Shown one piece after another: positions 5,850 through 45,192 of a stretch of 64,000 nucleotides of DNA. A program made the translations under genes and the position numbers. The stretch is from an uncultured Candidatus Saccharibacteria bacterium. GTDB taxonomy: Bacteria > Patescibacteriota > Doudnabacteria > UBA920. The stretch lies in NCBI GenBank assembly GCA_964372905.1, contig CAYJQY010000001.1:72848-136847 (forward strand), given 5' to 3'. Position 1 is the stretch's first letter; each line of letters starts with the position of its first letter. The notes beneath the pieces were generated by a model. That model was given only the letters and a program-made list of their open reading frames with translations. It ran no database searches and was not told the origin of the DNA.

Positions 5850-5878
5850 ATTTTAACATAGGACCGGCGATTTGACAA
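5850..5878 (-). promoter_or_regulatory. sigma70-type promoter for rplY (TTGTCA, 17-nt spacer, TAAAAT, minus strand)
   Basis: Reverse complement reads ttgtcaaatcgccggtcctatgttaaaat, about 60 nt upstream of the rplY start. Confidence 0.5.
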
Positions 5879-5889
5879 GAGCATAGAAA

Positions 5890-5918
5890 GATAAAAGCCG
5901 CGCTGTTCATCGCGCGGC
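5890..5918 (-). terminator. intrinsic terminator (minus strand) after the 5934-6296 gene
   Basis: gccgcgc-tgttcat-cgcgcggc hairpin with a T-run on the minus strand. Confidence 0.55.
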
Positions 5919-5933
5919 TTTGATGCTCAAAAT

Positions 5934-6296
5934 TTACACTTGCCGCAGGGCCCTCACCAAATCGCCGTCAAAATTCTTTAAGCTCTGGTGGATGGATATC
6001 AAATCATTCACGTTAATCGGCAAGCGCCGGCTGAACTTAGCGCTGTCCTTACCGGTTAAATCGGTAATGGTGCCGACGCTGACAATTTCCGGCCCGCTGA
6101 TATCGATATTAAACATGACAGAGCTTTTGCACTTTTCGCAGTCAGAATGGATAAGAAACCGGGCCTCGTTCAAGACCTCGTCCTGCTCGCTTTCAATGAC
6201 CCGAATGTTCTGGAATTTATATTTATAGCCGCAAATCGGGCAACGCAGGATAAACCCTAACCACCCTATGACTTTGGCAAAATCAATGCGTTTCAT
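5934..6296 (-). CDS. hypothetical protein with CxxC...CxxC zinc-ribbon-like motifs
   Basis: 120-aa ORF with CPICGYK ... CEKCK. Followed by its own terminator. No recognisable family. Confidence 0.5.
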   Translation of the reverse strand: MKRIDFAKVIGWLGFILRCPICGYKYKFQNIRVIESEQDEVLNEARFLIHSDCEKCKSSVMFNIDISGPEIVSVGTITDLTGKDSAKFSRRLPINVNDLISIHQSLKNFDGDLVRALRQV

Positions 6297-7438: not shown

Positions 7439-8299
7439 CTAAAAGTTATCCGTAGAAGGTCTTTGAAGGTTTGATCCCGAGCCGCCGAGACCCATGAGCA
7501 AAAGATTATTGGCATCGAGCACGTCGGTCTGGGGAATTAGATCAATTGAGGAAATGGCGCTGCCGCTTAAGCCGGGCAGGCTTACGGGAAACTTGCGCAC
7601 TTCGTTAGGGTTAACCGTAAATTCCTGGCGCGCGGTGACCAGCTGAATCCGGCGCGATTTATCGTAAACTAAAATTATTAACTCCGCCCGCTTTAATTGA
7701 TAAGGACTGTCATTGCGCACCGCGGCCTCCACCGTAAAAGGGTCGGTGTCGATTGGCCGGGAAACATCGGGGCGGATCGCGGTCAAATTGACTTGGGGAA
7801 TGCTAAACCGCTTTTGCCAGTGAATATCGTCCAAAGTCAGGGTGCCGGACACAATCGGCTGGGCCGTGGTAAAGCGCGGCGCCACCACAAATTTTTTCTG
7901 GCTGGGCAGCAAGAACAATTTACCTGGACTGCTAAGAGCCGTTTCTCCCGACGCAGTCTTGAAAATAAAATTATAAGAAATACGGTCGGCCGACAGCTCA
8001 AAATTTTCATTGGTAACCTGGGCATAAGCCGCATAGGCATTCTGACCCAGCGGCAAAACGGTGACCTTACTGACAGTAGGCGCTCGAGGATTTTGGAACG
8101 ATGGCCGGGCCTGGACTTGAAAATTTTTATAGCGGCCATTCCAATAGGCCTGCGACCCGTAGCGGACCGCGAAATAAGTCGGGATGATGCCAATGACGCA
8201 GACCACCGCCACGGTGCGCACCAGCGGCGGCAGCGTTCTTAACAAATAAACCAGGCTAATGGCGATTTCTTCGATTTTTATTTTGACGGTTTCCCACAT
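7439..8299 (-). CDS. hypothetical membrane-anchored protein (co-oriented with ftsW/rodA)
   Basis: Long ORF with an N-terminal TM helix and a Gln/Asn/Thr-rich extracytoplasmic body. Start set at the ATG at 8297-8299 (MWETVKIK) to avoid overlapping the dnaE promoter and start. The upstream GTG at 8362 is an alternative start. Confidence 0.5.
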   Translation of the reverse strand: MWETVKIKIEEIAISLVYLLRTLPPLVRTVAVVCVIGIIPTYFAVRYGSQAYWNGRYKNFQVQARPSFQNPRAPTVSKVTVLPLGQNAYAAYAQVTNENFELSADRISYNFIFKTASGETALSSPGKLFLLPSQKKFVVAPRFTTAQPIVSGTLTLDDIHWQKRFSIPQVNLTAIRPDVSRPIDTDPFTVEAAVRNDSPYQLKRAELIILVYDKSRRIQLVTARQEFTVNPNEVRKFPVSLPGLSGSAISSIDLIPQTDVLDANNLLLMGLGGSGSNLQRPSTDNF

Positions 8300-8351: not shown

Positions 8352-11300
8352 ATGAAATTCACCCACCTCCATTGCCACAGCCACTATTCGCTCCTGGACG
8401 GCCTGTCCCGCATCGGTCCCCTGGTGGAGCGGACAAAAAATTTGGGTATGGAAGCGCTGGCCCTCACTGACCACGGCGTGCTCTACGGTGCGGTGGAATT
8501 TTATAACAAAGCGCGCGACGCCGGACTCAAGCCAATTATCGGCATGGAAGTTTACATTGCCCCGCGCGGCCTGGCCAGCAAAGACGGCCGCCAGGACGCC
8601 GATTATTATCATTTAACTTTATTGGCCATGAACGATCAGGGCTATAAAAACCTGATCCAGCTCACCACCATCGCCCATCTCGAGGGCTTCTACTACAAAC
8701 CAAGAATCGATAAAGAAATTTTAAAAAAATATGGCGACGGACTGATTGCCTTGTCCGGCTGCCAGCGCGGAGAAATCCCGCGCGCGGTCGTCAACCAATC
8801 AGACCAGGAGGCTAAACTTGCGCTCCGGCAGCACCTGAACATCTTCGGCCCTAACCGGCTGTATGTGGAAATCCAACGCAACGCGCGCGCCAACACCGAA
8901 GCGCAAACCGCCCTCAACAACGCGCTTATTGCCTTTGCGCGCACCAACGGCCTGCCTCTGGTGGCTACGCAGGACAGCCATTATATTTACCCGGAAGATG
9001 CCGAAGCCCACGATGTCATGGTCTGCATTGGCACGGGCAAAACCGTGGGCGATTCCGGCCGCCTCGACATGCGCGGCGCTGACCTGTCATTGCGCTCGCC
9101 CGAGCAAATGGCCGAAGCATTTTATGATTTGCCCGAGGCCATCAGCAACACCCAGGTCATTGCCGAGCAGTGCAATTTGGAAATCCTGGTAGACCAGCGC
9201 TATTTCCCCACCGTGGAGTTGCCCAAGGGCGTGACCGCAGAAGAGCATTTGAAAACCTTAGCCCACCAGCGGGCGCGGGAACTTTATGCCAAGGACGAAG
9301 CCGTGCCGCAAGAAATCACCGAGCGCATTGACTACGAGCTCAACATCATCAACAAAAAAGGATTTGCCACATATTTTTTGATGGTAGCTGACATCGTCGG
9401 CGGGGCGCACGAACTTGGCGCCCTTACCAACACTCGCGGCAGCGCGGCCGGCAGTCTCGTAGGAAAAGTCTTAGGCATCACCACGGTTGACCCGATTTAC
9501 TACGAATTACCCTTTGAGCGCTTTTTGACCATGGACCGGCCAGGCACGCCGGATATTGACCTGGATATTGCCGACAACCGGCGGGAAGAGACCATCGGCT
9601 GGATTACCGAACGCTACGGGCGGGATAAGGTCGCCCAAATTATAACTTTTGGAACGATGAAAGCGCGCGCGGCGGTGCGCGACGTCGGCCGGGCTTTGGG
9701 AGTGCCTTACGGAAAATGCGATCGGATCGCCAAAATGATTCCCCTGGGCAAGCAGGGTTTCGACATGACGCTGGACCATGCTATTACTGTAACGCCGGAA
9801 CTGAAAGACGTTTACGAACGCGATCCGGAGACAAATAAAATTCTGACTATTGCCAAAAAATTGGAGGGTTGTGCGCGGCACGCTTCGATTCACGCAGCGG
9901 GTATTGTCATTACCCCAACCGCTCTGACCGACTATCTCCCACTTCAGCTTGAACCGGATGGCCAGCGGCGCATCACCCAATATGACATGTATGCCATTGA
10001 CGTCAACGTCAATTCCAAGGCGCTGGGACTAATTAAAATTGATCTTTTGGGGATCAGAAATTTAACTATTGTTGAGCAGGCCGTGAGAATAGTCAAGCAG
10101 CGCCATGGCATTGACATCGATATTTATAATCTCCCCCACCCCGACGAAAAAACTTTCAAGCTGCTGTCCGACGGCCTGACCTTCGGCGTGTTTCAGCTCG
10201 GTTCGTCAGGTATTACCCGCTATTTGCGGGAACTGCGGCCGACCCGGATTTTTGACATCATGGCCATGATCGCCTTGTACCGCCCCGGCCCCATGCAATT
10301 CATTCCCGAATACATCGCGCGCAAGCATAATCCCAGTCTGATTAAATATTTCGATCCGGCCTTGGAAAAAATTCTCAAGCGCACCTATGGAATTTTAGTT
10401 TACCAAGATGATCTGCTAACCATTGCCCACGACCTAGCCGGCTACAGCTGGGCCGAGGTCGATAAATTCCGCAAGGCCGTGGGTAAAAAAGACCCGGTCG
10501 AAATGGCTAAACAAAAAATCAAGTTTATCCAAGGGTGCATGGATACGTCCGGCTGGAGCCACAACAAAGCCAGCCAGATTTGGGCCTGGATCGAACCGTT
10601 TGCGGCCTATGGTTTTAACAAAGCCCATTCGGCATCCTACGCCATTGTTTCCTATCAGACCGCCTATATGAAGGCCAATTATCCCGTGGAGTTCATGGCG
10701 GCTTTGATGACTGCGGAAAGCGGCGATGAAACCAAAATCTATGCCGCGGTTGAGGAGGGCAAAAATTTAAGCATCCAGGTTTTGCCGCCGGACGTCAACG
10801 AATCTTTAGATAACTTTACCGTGGTCAACGAGGCCACCATCCGCTTCGGCTTAAATGCCATAAAAAATTTGGGCAACGATGTGATTGCGCGGATAATTGA
10901 AGTCCGCAATAATCTGGTAGGCGACCCTGGGACTCAAGCCCAATCTCGCGGCTTTGCGTCGCTGGAGGATTTTTTGATTCGCAGCCACACCAAAAATCTC
11001 AATAAAAAATCCTGGGAAGCTTTGGTTAAATCCGGGGCTTTGGATTCGTTTGGCGAGCGCGGCTCCATGCTGGCCAGCACAGAACAGGTTTTGGATTTCT
11101 TGCGCGAGCATTTTAAGCATGAGACTTCGGGGCAAAACTCTTTATTCGGGACATCAAACCAAACCGGCCGGCTCAAGCTCAAAAACGTAGCGCCGGCAGA
11201 CAAAGACGAACGCCTGGCCTGGGAAAAGGAACATCTCGGCATGTACGTATCGGCTCACCCTTTGGACCGCTACCGCGAAGTGCTAAAGTCAGTCACGTCC

Positions 11301-35709: not shown

Positions 35710-35784
35710 GGCCCATTCGTCTAGTGGCTAGGACGACTGGTTCTCAGCCAGTAAACAGGGGTTCGATTCCCCTATGGGCTACCA
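35710..35784 (+). tRNA. tRNA-Glu(CUC)
   Basis: Cloverleaf: acceptor GGCCCAT/ATGGGCT (G1-U72), anticodon stem ACTGG/CCAGT, loop uuCUCag, T-arm AGGGG-TTCGATT-CCCCT, encoded CCA. Confidence 0.8.
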
Positions 35785-35943: not shown

Positions 35944-36612
35944 TTATTTAATCCCGACAGTAACTGCGGCGCCGGGAAAATACTTTGCCACTATTTTTAC
36001 CTCAGTAAAACCAGCTTGTTGTAAGTATACAGGAATAAGTCCTTCCAGATTGCCCTTTAGGTATTCCGCATTTTCAAAGAGGTGCAATAACTTTGGCATC
36101 CAGCTAGTTTTAGTAGGTCCGAAGTCTGCAATGAGCACTTTTCCGCCCGGTTTTAAGATCCGGTATGTTTCTTGAATGGCTTTTCTTTTTATCTCATCCG
36201 GCAAATGATGAAACACAAGCGAGCTGACGGCTCTGTCCGCAGAATTATCCGGTAACGGCACGCTTTCCGCAAATGCCTGAATTAATTCCACTTCAAACTT
36301 GTTTTTTGCAAAACGGTTTCTGGCAATGCCAAGCGCTCGCGTGTCTGGGTCAATACCGATAAAGCGAGTGCGAGGATACTGTTGCTTGCCGAGCGCCAGC
36401 AGCACTCCAGTGCCGCATCCGACATCCACCACTGTATCACCGTCCCGAATTTCTGCCGCGGTTAAGACTTTCCGCAAAAAGCGCTTGCCAAGTCCGATCA
36501 GCCCACTTACAGTATCGTAAATTGGAGTTAAAAAATCCTTGTTCAGCGGGGGTATATATTTGTAATTGGGTTGGTAAGCCATAGTAGTTAAAACTTTTGT
36601 GGTTTCGTCCAA
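35944..36612 (-). CDS. class I SAM-dependent methyltransferase
   Basis: Motif I VVDVGCGTGV and post-I acidic residue. 222 aa. Confidence 0.75.
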   Translation of the reverse strand: MDETTKVLTTMAYQPNYKYIPPLNKDFLTPIYDTVSGLIGLGKRFLRKVLTAAEIRDGDTVVDVGCGTGVLLALGKQQYPRTRFIGIDPDTRALGIARNRFAKNKFEVELIQAFAESVPLPDNSADRAVSSLVFHHLPDEIKRKAIQETYRILKPGGKVLIADFGPTKTSWMPKLLHLFENAEYLKGNLEGLIPVYLQQAGFTEVKIVAKYFPGAAVTVGIK

Positions 36613-36677
36613 TTTTTAATTAATTCTTTCCAGAATAAAAATCCAATTACATAAAGTAAGTCTTTTGGTAATCATGG

Positions 36678-36762
36678 CTACACTTTTAATTTTGCCTCCA
36701 CGCGCTTTAATAATACCGCATTATTCATCGCCGCAATAATGGAAGATGCAAACACGAGCAGA
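36678..36762 (-). pseudogene. remnant of a P1B-type ATPase (CopA-like) 3' end
   Basis: Minus-strand frame translates to ..SSIIAAMNNAVLLKRVEAKLKV*, paralleling the copA C-terminus SSIIVATNAVLLKRVEKYLKN*. A 25-bp exact repeat (ccacgcgctttaataataccgcatt) occurs at 36698-36722 and 37240-37264. Confidence 0.6.
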
Positions 36763-36764
36763 CA

Positions 36765-37190
36765 TTAACACTTGCATTCCCATAGGTTGTTAAACCACCT
36801 GATCACATACCGCCAGATGAAAAAGTACAGCACAGGCAGCCATAACCAGGCAATGTTGTGATAGAAATAATCAAATTTTTGTCCGTCCACAAAGATTCCA
36901 ACGACTGCTTGAGTTGCTTCCGCATGAATCCGGTGGCCAGCCGGATAAAGAATTGGCGACAAGCCAAAAATTAAGCCCAATGCCGCTCCCCAAAGGTCAA
37001 TACGAAATTTGGGAATCCGGTTTTGAATTACAAAATACATAACATTCCATAGTGCATATATAAAGGGAGCAAGTGTAAATTCCCACACAAGCAGACCGTA
37101 ATTTTTGGTTACTTGACCATAGAACACGAGCAAAGCCACGATTGCTCCTGGGAAAATAAATCCTGAAATAAAAGCTTTAAAATATTTCAT
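36765..37190 (-). CDS. hypothetical 4-TM membrane protein flanked by copA 3'-end repeats
   Basis: 141-aa hydrophobic ORF lying between the copA remnant and the intact copA. Confidence 0.5.
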   Translation of the reverse strand: MKYFKAFISGFIFPGAIVALLVFYGQVTKNYGLLVWEFTLAPFIYALWNVMYFVIQNRIPKFRIDLWGAALGLIFGLSPILYPAGHRIHAEATQAVVGIFVDGQKFDYFYHNIAWLWLPVLYFFIWRYVIRWFNNLWECKC

Positions 37191-37219
37191 TAGTTTCTGT
37201 TCACTAATTATTAGACAAC

Positions 37220-39508
37220 CTAATTCTTTAAATATTTTTCCACGCGCTTTAATAATACCGCATTCGTGGCTACGATGATAGAAGAAGCGGACATGAGCAA
37301 TGCGGCAATTTCCGGGCGCAATGACCAGCCTAAGCTATTATAAAATACTCCGGCCGCCACCGGAATGGCCAGCACATTGTAAATAGCGGCCCAGAACAGG
37401 TTCTGCTTCATCTTCGTAACCGTAGCTTTGCTCAAACGGATAGCCGCGACAATATCGTAGGGATCTGATTTCATGAGAACTATATTGCCGGTCTCAATCG
37501 CCACATCAGTTCCCGCGCCAATGGCAATGCCAATGTCTGCCTGCGCCAAGGCTGGCGCATCGTTAATGCCGTCACCGACCATAGCTACGAATTTACCTTC
37601 ACCTTGCAGTTTCTTGACATGCGTTGCTTTGTCCCCGGGCAGAACTTCAGCAAATACTCGATCAATGCCTAAATCTTTTCCCACTGCCTCGGCCACTTTG
37701 ATATGGTCGCCGGTAATCATAGCAACCTCAAGACCTAAATTTTTAAGCGCGCTGATGGCTTTTTTAGAAGTCGGTTTTACGGTGTCGGCAACCGCAATCA
37801 CCCCCGCCAGTCTGTTGTCTACCGCGATTAAGCTAAGCGTCTTGCCTTGTGCCGCCAAGCTGTCAATCTGATTGCGCTCTCCGGCAGTATCAATTCCTTT
37901 ATCAGTCAACAGTTTTTCTTTCCCTGCCAGTACCTGCTTGCCTCCAATAACACCTTTGAGGCCGAAGCCGGCAATAGATTCAAAATTTGAAATTTGCTCT
38001 CCGTTTAGATTCCGGCTTTTCGCTTCGTCAACAATGGCTTTGGAGATGGGATGATTGGAAGCCGAACCAATGGCGGCTTGCAGCCGCAATACTTCATCGG
38101 GTTGAAACCCGTTAAAACCCAATACATCGGTGACTTTTGGCTTGCCTTCGGTCAGCGTTCCGGTTTTGTCCAAAACAATAGCGGTGAGGCGAGAAGTATT
38201 TTCAAGTGTAGCCGCGTCTTTTATTAAAATATTATGTTTCGCTCCGATTCCTGTGCCGACCGCCACGGCAGTCGGCGTGGCTAGGCCAAGCGCGTCAGGA
38301 CAAGCAATAACAACTGTAGCTACGGCAAATGTCAACGCGGTCAGCAAGCTCGCGCTCCCCAAAAAATACCAACCAAGGAACGCAGCCGTACCAGAGCCGA
38401 TTGCCACGACTACCAATCTGCCGGCCCAGAGGTCGGCAATCCTCTGACCGGGGGCTTTGGAGTTCTGCGCTGTTTCCACCATTTTGATGATTTGCGCTAA
38501 AACGGTTTCCGAACCCACTTGGGTGGCTTCAAATTTTACGATTCCGGTAATATTAACCGCTCCGCCGACAACTTTATCGCCGATCTTTTTGCTGACGGGG
38601 ATAGATTCTCCGGTAACCAGGGATTCATCAATTGCGCTTTCTCCTTCGGTGACCTTACCGTCTACCGGCACCTTGTCACCCGGACGCAATACGACAATAT
38701 CTCCCTTAATGATTTCTGCACTGGGGACAGTCATTTCCTTGCCGCTACGAATCACGGTTGCTTGGGGAGGGACCAAATCAAAGAGGGCTCGCAGAGCGTC
38801 GGATGTGCCTCTGCGGGATTTCATTTCCATCCAATGACCGAAAAGAACAAAGGTGACCAGCAATGCTGCCGCTTCAAAAAAGGTTTCCTTGCCGCCAATC
38901 AGGGTGAGCAAGACGCTAAAAACATAAGCGGCCAAGACGCCGGTGGCAATCAGCACGGCCATATTCAGCTTTCGGGCTTTCAGAGAGTAGTAAGTGCCGG
39001 TTAAAAAGATGGAACCGGTCCAAAATACAATAGGGGTAGTGAGAATAAGCAGCAGCCAATTAACCGGGATTGGAGTTGGAAGATTCAGCTTAAAGATATT
39101 GATCCCCACCGGGGAATACAAAAAAATGGGAATAGAAAGCAGAAAGGAAATCCAAAACCTGCGCCGCATATCCGCGGCCATTTGCTTAGCGATGGCCGGA
39201 TTGGTCATGGCGGCCTCGTGATCCGCATGGCTCATGGCTTGCATATCATGGCCGGCGTGAGAGTCGGCTTTTTTGGACTTGCCCGCCATAGCCCCGCCTG
39301 CCGGCCGGGCAGGTTTAGCGGAGACGGGAATTAAATCCATGCCGCAGCCCGGGCATTTGCCTGGTTCTTTTTTGATTACCTCGGGATGCATTGGGCAGGT
39401 ATAAACCTGCTTGTCGTCATTCATTTTATTATGATGATTATGATTCATATCCATATAATTTATTAACTTAATACCCGGAAAACTCTTCAGTTCGAATGTT
39501 GTCTTCAT
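37220..39508 (-). CDS. copA: copper-translocating P1B-type ATPase with N-terminal CPMHPE-type metal-binding domain and CPD (not CPC) membrane motif
   Basis: DKTGT, GDGINDAPAL, TM MSASS motif, N-terminal YTCPMHPEV...CPGCGM and a His/Met-rich stretch. The TM6 motif is IACPDALGLATP. AGGTG SD before M1, with a 41-nt overlap of the upstream gene. Confidence 0.9.
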   Translation of the reverse strand: MKTTFELKSFPGIKLINYMDMNHNHHNKMNDDKQVYTCPMHPEVIKKEPGKCPGCGMDLIPVSAKPARPAGGAMAGKSKKADSHAGHDMQAMSHADHEAAMTNPAIAKQMAADMRRRFWISFLLSIPIFLYSPVGINIFKLNLPTPIPVNWLLLILTTPIVFWTGSIFLTGTYYSLKARKLNMAVLIATGVLAAYVFSVLLTLIGGKETFFEAAALLVTFVLFGHWMEMKSRRGTSDALRALFDLVPPQATVIRSGKEMTVPSAEIIKGDIVVLRPGDKVPVDGKVTEGESAIDESLVTGESIPVSKKIGDKVVGGAVNITGIVKFEATQVGSETVLAQIIKMVETAQNSKAPGQRIADLWAGRLVVVAIGSGTAAFLGWYFLGSASLLTALTFAVATVVIACPDALGLATPTAVAVGTGIGAKHNILIKDAATLENTSRLTAIVLDKTGTLTEGKPKVTDVLGFNGFQPDEVLRLQAAIGSASNHPISKAIVDEAKSRNLNGEQISNFESIAGFGLKGVIGGKQVLAGKEKLLTDKGIDTAGERNQIDSLAAQGKTLSLIAVDNRLAGVIAVADTVKPTSKKAISALKNLGLEVAMITGDHIKVAEAVGKDLGIDRVFAEVLPGDKATHVKKLQGEGKFVAMVGDGINDAPALAQADIGIAIGAGTDVAIETGNIVLMKSDPYDIVAAIRLSKATVTKMKQNLFWAAIYNVLAIPVAAGVFYNSLGWSLRPEIAALLMSASSIIVATNAVLLKRVEKYLKN

Positions 39509-40244
39509 TTACACCTGCATTAGCAAGTAACTCTTTCATCGCGGCAACCATGCTTGGCGGTCCGGCAAGATAATAGATAGATGCTTGAAGATCGTCAACA
39601 TACCGCTCTATCATGGCGCGGTCTATATATCCTGTTTCTCCTTGCCATTCCGTCTTTGATTTTTCAGGTTCAGTCATGGTTGGAACAAAGGTGAACGCTG
39701 GGTTTTGCTGAGCCAACTCTTGAAGTTCAGCGAGGGATGCCGCGTCTTCCGGCCGGCGATTAGAGTAAAACAGATATATATGATGGGGCAGTTTTCTTTC
39801 GGTTGCATCTTTAATCATAGAAAGTACGGGAGTTATGCCAATGCCTCCAATAAGAAACACAGCAGGCTTTGACGCGTCGCTATGCAACATAAATGACCCG
39901 TGCGGGTTTTCAATTGAGACAGTATCTCCAATCTCCATGCGTCCCAGAACTCTCTTAAAGGCAGTATCTCTCATTCGTGTTGCAATAACAATATCCTGCT
40001 CTGTAGGCGAATTCACAAAGGAAAACATTCTGCTGTTGCCCTCGGCGTCTGTTTGTGGAGGATTAATCAGGATCATCTTTACATGCTGGCCGGCCTTAAA
40101 CGAAAGCTCTGCCGGCTTTTCGAAAAAGAAAGCCATCGTGCCCTCCGCTACTTCTTTCTTGTCCTTCAGCGCGATTTCAAACACCTTTGCGTGTTCATGG
40201 TGTGTATGTTCGTGATGATCGTGTCCGTCATGATCGTGATTCAT
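39468..40244 (-). CDS. FNR-like FAD/NAD(P)H oxidoreductase (ferric-reductase-type flavin domain) with His-rich N-terminus
   Basis: FAD motif RMFSFVNSP, NAD(P)-binding GGIGITPVLSMI, N-terminal MNHDHDGHDHHEHTHHEH. Confidence 0.7.
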   Translation of the reverse strand: MNHDHDGHDHHEHTHHEHAKVFEIALKDKKEVAEGTMAFFFEKPAELSFKAGQHVKMILINPPQTDAEGNSRMFSFVNSPTEQDIVIATRMRDTAFKRVLGRMEIGDTVSIENPHGSFMLHSDASKPAVFLIGGIGITPVLSMIKDATERKLPHHIYLFYSNRRPEDAASLAELQELAQQNPAFTFVPTMTEPEKSKTEWQGETGYIDRAMIERYVDDLQASIYYLAGPPSMVAAMKELLANAGVNEDNIRTEEFSGY

Positions 40245-40311
40245 GTTTGTGATAGGTTAAACGAATAAATACTTATAAAATAATTGGGCTTGGTCTACTT
40301 GGGTATGATAT

Positions 40312-40971
40312 TTAATGCATTATTTGAGAATTATTTTGAGGCTTCATTTCAAACTGATAAGCGCCCTCGGGTTCGCGGTAGCTAATAAGCAAACCGGAGG
40401 CAATCAACAAAAACAGCATCCACGCATAAGCCGCTAATTTCAGTCGGCCTTTTCCCAACACCTCCACCGCTCTAAACACTCCCGCCAGAATAAAGGAAGC
40501 GCCTAAATATCGATGAATGGTTACCGCTCTCACAACTGCTTCGGAAGTGCCATGCTGCTCGTGGGTTAAAAATAGCACACCAATTATTAAAAGAACTATG
40601 GGAAAAGCCGCTTTCGGCCAGAGCTTGTCAGTTTTCAAGCTATAAAGTTCAGCTGCCCCGGCAACTGTGGCCAGAATTGCCAAATAAAAATGTTGGCGCT
40701 GTTGCGCATCCGTGATGGTAGCCTTCCAAGCCAACCCCATTTCATTGAAGTGGTGGGAAAATGAAAAAATAGGTAAAAACAATCCGGCCATAAGCATCAG
40801 GCTTGGCCAGGCATACTTTAGCCAGTTCGCCCGATAAATTCCGGTTATTTGCACAAAAGCAATAATAACCACCATAGCAAAGAGCGCACCCTCAACCCAA
40901 TGACCCAGGTTGGATAAGTAAATCAACTCATCTAGCGTATGTAATTGTAAAATAATTGGTAAATTTTCCAT
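40312..40971 (-). CDS. 6-TM His-containing membrane protein (candidate heme-binding ferric-reductase/MsrQ-like partner)
   Basis: About 6 TM helices with conserved-looking His in the helices (HH, THEQH). Immediately upstream of the FNR-like flavoprotein on the same strand. Confidence 0.4.
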   Translation of the reverse strand: MENLPIILQLHTLDELIYLSNLGHWVEGALFAMVVIIAFVQITGIYRANWLKYAWPSLMLMAGLFLPIFSFSHHFNEMGLAWKATITDAQQRQHFYLAILATVAGAAELYSLKTDKLWPKAAFPIVLLIIGVLFLTHEQHGTSEAVVRAVTIHRYLGASFILAGVFRAVEVLGKGRLKLAAYAWMLFLLIASGLLISYREPEGAYQFEMKPQNNSQIMH

Positions 40972-44996: not shown

Positions 44997-45192
44997 ATTT
45001 ATACTCTCCCCATCAAAATCTGTCAAGGGCGTTATTTACCACAGGCCACCATCACCTCGCAGTATCGAGCGGCTCGGATGGATCATTGGATGCTGTAAGC
45101 TGATACCAAAAGCATAGACTCAAACGCCTGAACCAAGCCGGCCTAGCGGCCAGTTTTGAATTACCGAGCAAACGTGTAATAATACTTGGTAT

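Follow-up and report, generated by a model that had tools for sequence, protein, structure and literature searches.

Introduction

Three kinds of described event come closest to the structure reported here. Displacement of gene 3' ends, with orphan remnants left behind, is known from Rhs, CdiA and Vibrio type VI secretion system (T6SS) effector-immunity loci, where it has been attributed to homology-facilitated illegitimate recombination (PMC5361080). Direct repeats around an insert are also expected from Campbell-type integration of suicide plasmids and ends-in fragments, and from integrative elements that enter at the 3' ends of genes and tRNAs. Here we describe a copper locus in a 64-kb stretch of DNA from an uncultured Candidatus Saccharibacteria bacterium (contig CAYJQY010000001.1, positions 72,848 to 136,847; the window below means this whole stretch), in which a gene for a 141-residue membrane protein, g141, lies between the 3' end of the heavy-metal ATPase gene copA and a second, displaced copy of that end. 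We read the structure, with moderate confidence, as the scar of an insertion-duplication of the Campbell type, made by a single crossover. As an evolutionary scar the locus is ordinary: it adds an example from little-studied bacteria to a known kind of event, and represents no new mechanism or system. Episymbiotic Patescibacteria carry few classical mobile elements, and the value of the locus is as a clean, datable example of how they remodel a copper-resistance operon.

Two copA tails with a shared core

All relevant genes lie on the minus strand, and coordinates are positions in the 64-kb window (Table 1). The window contains exactly two copies of the 25-mer CCACGCGCTTTAATAATACCGCATT, 542 nt apart and with g141 between them, as an earlier note on this DNA, made from its letters, had reported. 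No further copy was found in the window at up to 3 mismatches, and none in 100 shuffles. One copy falls within the last 15 codons of the intact copA open reading frame (ORF). The other lies, again as noted earlier, in a remnant homologous to the copA C-terminus: the copA end ALLMSASSIIVATNAVLLKRVEKYLKN and the remnant CLLVFASSIIAAMNNAVLLKRVEAKLKV are 73% identical over 26 residues. The similarity is not limited to the repeat and extends to both sides of it, so that the tail of copA (37220-37300, here T1) and the remnant (36678-36761, here T2) are homologous over ~81 nt, or ~27 codons, and flank the spacer and g141.

Agreement between the two tails is sharply bounded. A codon alignment gave 12 differences in 36 nt in the left flank and 9 in 20 nt in the right flank, against 0 in 25 in the core; the pooled flanks differ at 21 of 56 aligned nt (37.5%), and a 3-nt insertion or deletion in the left flank comes in addition. 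At this flank divergence, the probability of 25 consecutive identical positions is about 8e-6. Codons that specify the same amino acid in both tails show the same step, with six of eight differing in the left flank and none of eight in the core (Fisher p = 0.0035). We compared the tails with those of 80 copA loci from species-representative genomes, almost all Patescibacteria and 60-87% identical in protein sequence, to which others were added later. The 25-mer was absent from all 86 related copA tails, which carry 2-10 mismatches to it (mostly 5-8), and nearly all of them encode NAVLLKRVE at the core position. Because relatives that encode the same peptide do not share the 25-mer, the identity of the core does not come from coding constraint. 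It points instead to a recent exchange between the two tails, either as a recombination junction or as a conversion patch, and not to conservation.

The family pattern distinguishes the two sides of the core. To its left, every relative reads LLMS.SSI(I/V)VA.N; T1 agrees with this pattern, and T2 shows four departures from it and one extra codon. To its right the family is variable, with xKLKV/I the commonest ending and PYLKK and KDFKN also found; the ending of T2, AKLKV, is typical of the family, and that of T1, KYLKN, is unusual yet within the family range. T2 begins directly behind the TAA stop of g141 and in the same frame, and across this junction (TAA, then TGT CTG CTC...) the homology to copA goes back no further than LL. 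We considered and rejected a read-through product fusing g141 to T2; homologues of g141 terminate at the point of its stop (WGCECK*, WGCKCR*). T2 is a non-coding relic, and in annotation this 27-codon fragment should be called neither a gene nor a second ATPase.

Ancestral gene order

The previous state of the locus can be approached through L094, a 40-kb contig that is syntenic with the metal and redox cluster of the window and carries a 79% identical homologue of its methyltransferase. Its gene order is two small genes, DsbD-like, AhpC/TSA-like, YHS, copA and methyltransferase, at 59-89% protein identity to the window (copA 83%; flanking genes 79-89%), and DNA alignments to it span window positions 45030 to 35968. 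The L094 copA ends ...NAVLLKRVEPKLKV (PKLKV); ten bases on follows a gene of the HXXEE family (132 residues; PF13787, 34.4 bits against a cut-off of 25) and then the methyltransferase, with neither g141 nor a tail remnant. In the window, the sequence behind AKLKV* of T2 is CC ATG ATT ACC AAA AGA, and its L094 counterpart is CC ATG ATC ACT AAG AGA, both encoding MITKR. Since the end of T2 adjoins the HXXEE start just as the copA end does in L094, it is T2, and not the present copA stop, that ends in the ancestral context. The view that the copy inside copA is the true 3' end of that gene thus holds for how copA is read today, but the ancestral context belongs to the displaced remnant. By this comparison the ancestral order appears to have been copA-HXXEE-methyltransferase, with the present copA stop, the spacer and g141 as newcomers. 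No homologue of g141 was found in the 80 nearest copA loci or in L094; the earlier note had asked whether orthologous loci lack the gene.

The HXXEE gene itself survives only at its ends. The window keeps its first 5 and last ~17 codons (...TGGAAAGAATTAATTAAAAATTGGACGAAACCACAA), and ~330 bp between the two stumps are gone; from the 3' stump onward, window 36647-35968 aligns by blastn with L094 9936-10615 at 77.6% identity. The alignment indicates that the gene is dead through an internal deletion of ~330 bp. Other copA loci show both states, with an intact HXXEE gene after copA in L051 and another HXXEE 3' stump right after copA in L079 (6356-6427). We also tried g141 as a diverged HXXEE protein, which would have made the change a like-for-like swap, and found no significant similarity and no Pfam match. 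On balance the locus gained one accessory membrane gene (g141) and lost another (HXXEE), with the pump left intact.

The same synteny bears on the extent of the island. The repeat had been taken to mark one edge of an accessory island, but synteny with L094 continues through it, from a csoR-like gene at ~45.0 kb on one side to the methyltransferase at 35.97 kb on the other. The boundary in composition and synteny instead lies beyond the methyltransferase, next to tRNA-Glu, and the lower-GC block runs from ~36 to 47 kb. Between YHS and copA the window also holds a Ytp1-like membrane gene and an FNR-like reductase gene (39468-40971), both absent from L094 (6012-7181), where a beta-propeller gene sits between the AhpC-like and YHS genes instead. 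The copper island is mosaic at several points, not just at the copA 3' end.

Other assemblies and other copA loci

Three further assemblies, built from separate sequencing runs, carry the arrangement: one is 100% identical (L003) and two are 99.5-99.6% identical (L004 and L005), the latter differing from the window at 6-8 scattered positions. It is a real genomic structure and not an assembly artefact. Among the variant positions, three single-nucleotide polymorphisms (SNPs) shared by L004 and L005 fall in an 18-nt stretch immediately upstream of the copA tail (37304, 37316, 37321), and L004 has five SNPs within 15 nt of the methyltransferase (36496-36510). These clusters on either side of the insertion suggest small recombination patches.

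We looked for extra tails at other copA loci by relaxed tblastn with the last 60 copA residues. In L070, an intact copA ends ...NAVMLKRVEGKLRV (tail 7999-8064), and a frameshifted remnant, ...SSIIVATNAALLKR/VEQKLKV, lies ~2 kb downstream (10022-10090). The remnant is identical to the working tail at 38 of 41 positions on the left, including an exact run of 25 nt, and at 16 of 22 on the right; between the tails are an unrelated 175-residue ORF and a 249-residue ORF that we took from its sequence to be a HAD-type hydrolase. L070 is a second, independent case of the same architecture. L044 carries a strongly diverged ATPase tail (...AVLMSLLTVIVAVNAVLLKKKNLS*; 8396-8497) 30 bp past an intact copA with no cargo between them, and looks like a replacement. 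In L092, a lone 75-residue copA C-terminal end stands beside a resistance-nodulation-division (RND) pump (5873-6100). Evidently, exchange around copA is frequent in these bacteria, by both homologous and illegitimate routes. A literature search on copA transfer in the Candidate Phyla Radiation returned nothing relevant.

The g141 family

The inserted gene belongs to a very rare, uncharacterised family that may merit separate study. g141 has no Pfam or NCBIfam match, and an exhaustive search with a profile across 1.84 billion cluster representatives gave only 14 relatives; its AlphaFold model has a pLDDT (predicted local distance difference test) of 90.6. At all four of the nearer sites, the window included (33-100% identity), the family member stands in a copper gene cluster. 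In L001 (1038-1469), a relative 47% identical to g141 follows a different P1B ATPase and a 78-residue gene; in L096 (586-972), one at 45% has a csoR-like repressor gene on one side and the start of a copA-type ATPase on the other; and in L097 (5001-5423), one at 33% lies between cupredoxin and multicopper oxidase genes. A membrane gene of 75-78 residues precedes the g141 relative in L001 and L097. Three distant sites (26-30% identity) show no link to copper: judged from ORF translations alone, the neighbours are a thioredoxin-like gene at one and a gene that looks like a methionine-sulfoxide reductase at another, and at L088 they are neither copper nor redox genes. The close subgroup shares an H-x-x-H-x-E loop and a C-terminal W-x-C-x-C. 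From these motifs and neighbours, a role of g141 in copper handling may reasonably be proposed.

How the structure may have arisen

Under the insertion-duplication that we favour, the ancestor would have carried copA (...LLMSASSIIVAT-NAVLLKRVE-AKLKV*), the HXXEE gene and the methyltransferase, in that order. DNA from another copper locus would have brought in the last ~81 nt of a diverged copA-family gene (...LLVFASSIIAAMN-NAVLLKRVE-KYLKN*), the 29-nt spacer and g141, either as a small circle or as a fragment with both ends inside the tail homology. One crossover with the resident copA tail, presumably RecA-dependent, would then have taken place at the 25 nt of perfect identity, a length close to the minimum for RecA-type exchange. 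T1 would combine the resident sequence left of the core with the incoming KYLKN* and would terminate a still-intact copA, whose present C-terminus is probably chimeric in its last five residues. T2 would combine the incoming sequence left of the core with the resident AKLKV*, without function and still abutting the old downstream context. The HXXEE gene would have been lost to its ~330-bp internal deletion later or concurrently. Most likely g141 would be co-transcribed after copA; a scan of the junction region for terminators and promoters gave nothing above background, and the 29-nt spacer holds no terminator-like hairpin. Reverse recombination between the two 25-bp cores would remove g141 and restore the old copA end, with a predicted empty-site junction of ...ATCGTAGCCACG-AATGCGGTATTATTAAAGCGCGTGG-AGGCAAAATTAAAAGTGTAGCCATG and a predicted circle or donor junction of ...ATTGCGGCGATGAAT-AATGCGGTATTATTAAAGCGCGTGG-AAAAATATTTAAAGAATTAG.

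Two further observations are consistent with this course of events. Relatives of g141 stand beside P1B ATPases elsewhere (L001, L096), which makes a donor with the order ATPase tail, spacer and g141 plausible. The window copA is also a mosaic in a sliding-window comparison, with codons 1-120 nearest to L094 and codons 440-600 nearest to L006, so diverged copA alleles do exchange in this group. The same comparison (against L094, L006 and others) gave no informative switch near the copA 3' end that would mark an upstream crossover. The proposal in the earlier note of recombination with a second P-type ATPase gene survives in part: diverged copA-family sequence appears to have taken part and g141 to have been inserted, but no second intact ATPase is required, only a foreign-looking tail of ~81 nt.

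Several results weigh against insertion-duplication. We found neither an empty-site allele nor a donor with the predicted tail ...IIAAMNNAVLLKRVEKYLKN*, and an exact search for the 25-mer in the Joint Genome Institute (JGI) metagenome collection gave 0 matches. A 43-residue query containing T2, run against 5.8 billion proteins in a word-indexed search, returned only four hits, each a short C-terminal piece of copA with a canonical tail (two come from frameshifted whole genes, L090 and L091, and one is the stand-alone orphan of L092). Clustered at 90% identity, copA stands alone, with no allele at that level or above. The last five residues are variable in the family, so KYLKN alone does not mark the end of T1 as foreign, and the odd residues of T2 left of the core could partly reflect decay after loss of function. 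The 542-bp circle or ends-in fragment is an assumed, never-observed intermediate. Finally, the diverged tail of L044, which has no cargo, fits replacement better and indicates that replacement-type events do occur at the copA locus.

Such a replacement is the strongest alternative, which we consider possible on present evidence though unlikely. A linear fragment with a foreign copA 3' part (all of T1), the spacer and g141 would have displaced the resident end, joined by homologous recombination somewhere inside copA and by an illegitimate join between the stop codon of g141 and the resident copA at position -81. T2 would then be wholly the old resident tail, and the identity of the core would come from later short-patch gene conversion or from lucky pre-existing identity. 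Homology-facilitated illegitimate recombination is documented in transformable bacteria and has been proposed for 3'-end displacement of T6SS effectors and Rhs (PMC5361080). The mosaic copA and the old tail that L044 keeps 30 bp behind its intact copA agree with this account, as does T1, which in its entirety is a perfectly normal family tail. The non-homologous junction between the g141 stop and T2 is also as expected, although both models must assume a junction of this kind. Replacement needs an extra event, however, a conversion of only 25-30 bp, to give a core with 0 differences between flanks that are 37% diverged. Left of the core, a resident tail should also follow the canonical pattern seen in L094 and all 86 relatives, and it is only there that T2 has four replacements and a codon insertion. 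The two readings differ in what they predict. If T2 is wholly resident, a full-length ATPase continuing upstream of TGTCTGCTCGTGTTTGCA and ending ...LLVFASSIIAAMNNAVLLKRVEAKLKV* is expected directly 5' of an HXXEE gene or methyltransferase; if T1 is wholly incoming, a donor should carry the canonical tail ...IIVATNAVLLKRVEKYLKN* followed by g141, and should stay above 95% identical to the window at the nucleotide level over hundreds of bases left of the core.

A broader proposal goes beyond the single event, and we regard it as doubtful. The conserved copA tail might serve in Patescibacteria as a portable attachment site that needs no recombinase, with small tail-carrying cassettes excising as circles when their two tail copies recombine and re-entering other genomes at copA through host homologous recombination, and with g141 as a new copper-handling family. 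The last element draws on the HxxHxE loop, the C-terminal CxC and the copper-cluster context at the four nearer sites. If it were true, copper islands would trade accessory genes, g141 among them, and both the window and L070 would be occupied sites, each with its own cargo.

A site-specific mobile cassette, in which the 25-bp repeat would be the duplicated attachment core of an integrase, Xer or integron system that targets and restores the copA 3' end, is very unlikely. Such a cassette might leave what is seen here: one inserted gene between exact direct repeats, placed where a conserved gene ends and supplying that gene with a replacement end, with a tRNA gene 0.9 kb away. We detected no recombinase, however, in the 542-bp unit or among the Pfam-scanned ORFs of 33-52 kb (the small ORFs at 43.9-45.1 kb are accounted for by synteny with L094), and no inverted repeat or attC-like palindrome at the borders. 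The sequence beside the core inside the supposed element is coding sequence of an ATPase tail. In L070 the exact run lies elsewhere in the tail (SIIVATNA, not NAVLLKRVE), and neither the JGI metagenome collection nor the 86 relatives contain the core elsewhere. A structured RNA signal was also lacking: in the search for a structured RNA or regulatory element in 36583-36770, the folding z-score was +0.7 and the only Rfam match was the tRNA.

Local tandem duplication of the copA tail with later divergence, or an assembly artefact induced by the repeat, is hardly credible: repeats 542 nt apart could come from slippage or confuse an assembler, but the same architecture stands in the three separate-run assemblies, 99.5% variants included, the repeat is shorter than usual assembly k-mers, and duplication with decay cannot yield 37% flank divergence with 0 of 25 in the core and leaves unexplained the origin of g141, which relatives lack.

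Genes at the locus

The copA ORF has the complete features of a P1B-type pump: ATPase and HAD domains, an N-terminal metal-binding domain, DKTGT and a CPx motif. It matches PF00122 (E1-E2_ATPase), PF00702 (Hydrolase) and PF19335 (HMBD), all above their cut-offs, as well as TIGR01525 (594 bits) and TIGR01511 (564 bits), both above cut-off, and the DKTGT phosphorylation site and the CPD motif of the fourth transmembrane helix can be read directly in its translation (...VVIACPDALGLATP...). In this copA family the ion-binding transmembrane helix carries CPD instead of the CPC of classical copper pumps. Copper specificity would rest mainly on the hidden Markov model match and the gene neighbourhood (csoR-like and YHS genes in the window, a multicopper oxidase gene in L094). 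The longest ORF shares 41 nt (39468-39508) with the upstream FNR-like oxidoreductase gene, and by comparison with relatives the true start is probably M19 at ~39454 (MDMNHNHH...), ~18 codons into this ORF. For the methyltransferase, the true start is the ATG at 36582 (MAYQPNYKY...), judged from the L094 homologue (MVYQPNYKY).

Table 1. Features around the copA 3' end, given as positions in the 64-kb window.
Feature	Position	Strand	Remarks
copA-like P1B heavy-metal ATPase	39508 to 37220	-	intact ORF, 762 residues; Pfam and NCBIfam matches
T1, working copA tail LLMSASSIIVATNAVLLKRVEKYLKN*	37220 to 37300	-	family-invariant sequence left of core
Direct repeat copy 1, 25-bp core	37240 to 37264		encodes NAVLLKRV+E
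AT-rich spacer, 29 nt	37191 to 37219	-	GC 0.28; from copA stop to g141 start
g141, 141-residue four-helix membrane protein	37190 to 36765	-	putative inserted cargo
T2, displaced copA tail remnant CLLVFASSIIAAMNNAVLLKRVEAKLKV*	36764 to 36678	-	copA homology from LL, one codon past g141 stop
Direct repeat copy 2, 25-bp core	36698 to 36722		
HXXEE-family 5' stump (CC + ATGATTACCAAAAGA = MITKR)	36661 to 36677	-	directly behind T2 stop; aligns with L094 9584-9602
HXXEE 3' stump (..FWKELIKNWTKPQ)	36597 to 36647	-	from alignment with L094
Class I S-adenosylmethionine-dependent methyltransferase	35944 to 36582	-	Pfam match
tRNA-Glu	35710 to 35784	+	

Comparison with known systems

Like the integrative elements that use gene and tRNA 3' ends, the window shows an exact direct repeat at both borders and an insert that supplies a substitute 3' end and leaves the target intact. 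Unlike them, it has no recombinase, no attachment core conserved across cases and only one small cargo gene.

The resemblance to 3'-end displacement at Rhs, CdiA and T6SS loci lies in a new end and partner gene placed behind a conserved body, with the old end persisting downstream as an orphan, and in recurrence at the same kind of locus (window, L070, L044). The displaced piece here, however, is only 27 codons of a transporter helix rather than a toxin domain; toxin-immunity logic and an array of successive orphans are both absent, and the new end differs by just five residues.

Campbell-type integration differs from the window in scale, as the homology here is ~81 nt and ~63% identical outside the core, and the incoming molecule is hypothetical, very small (542 bp) and without a vector or plasmid backbone. 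The likeness is in the structure itself: direct repeats of the homology segment flank the insert, and a point of exchange with perfect identity is bounded by divergence. As in such integrations, both copies would be reciprocal hybrids under the insertion-duplication that we favour, and recombination between the repeats would excise the insert.

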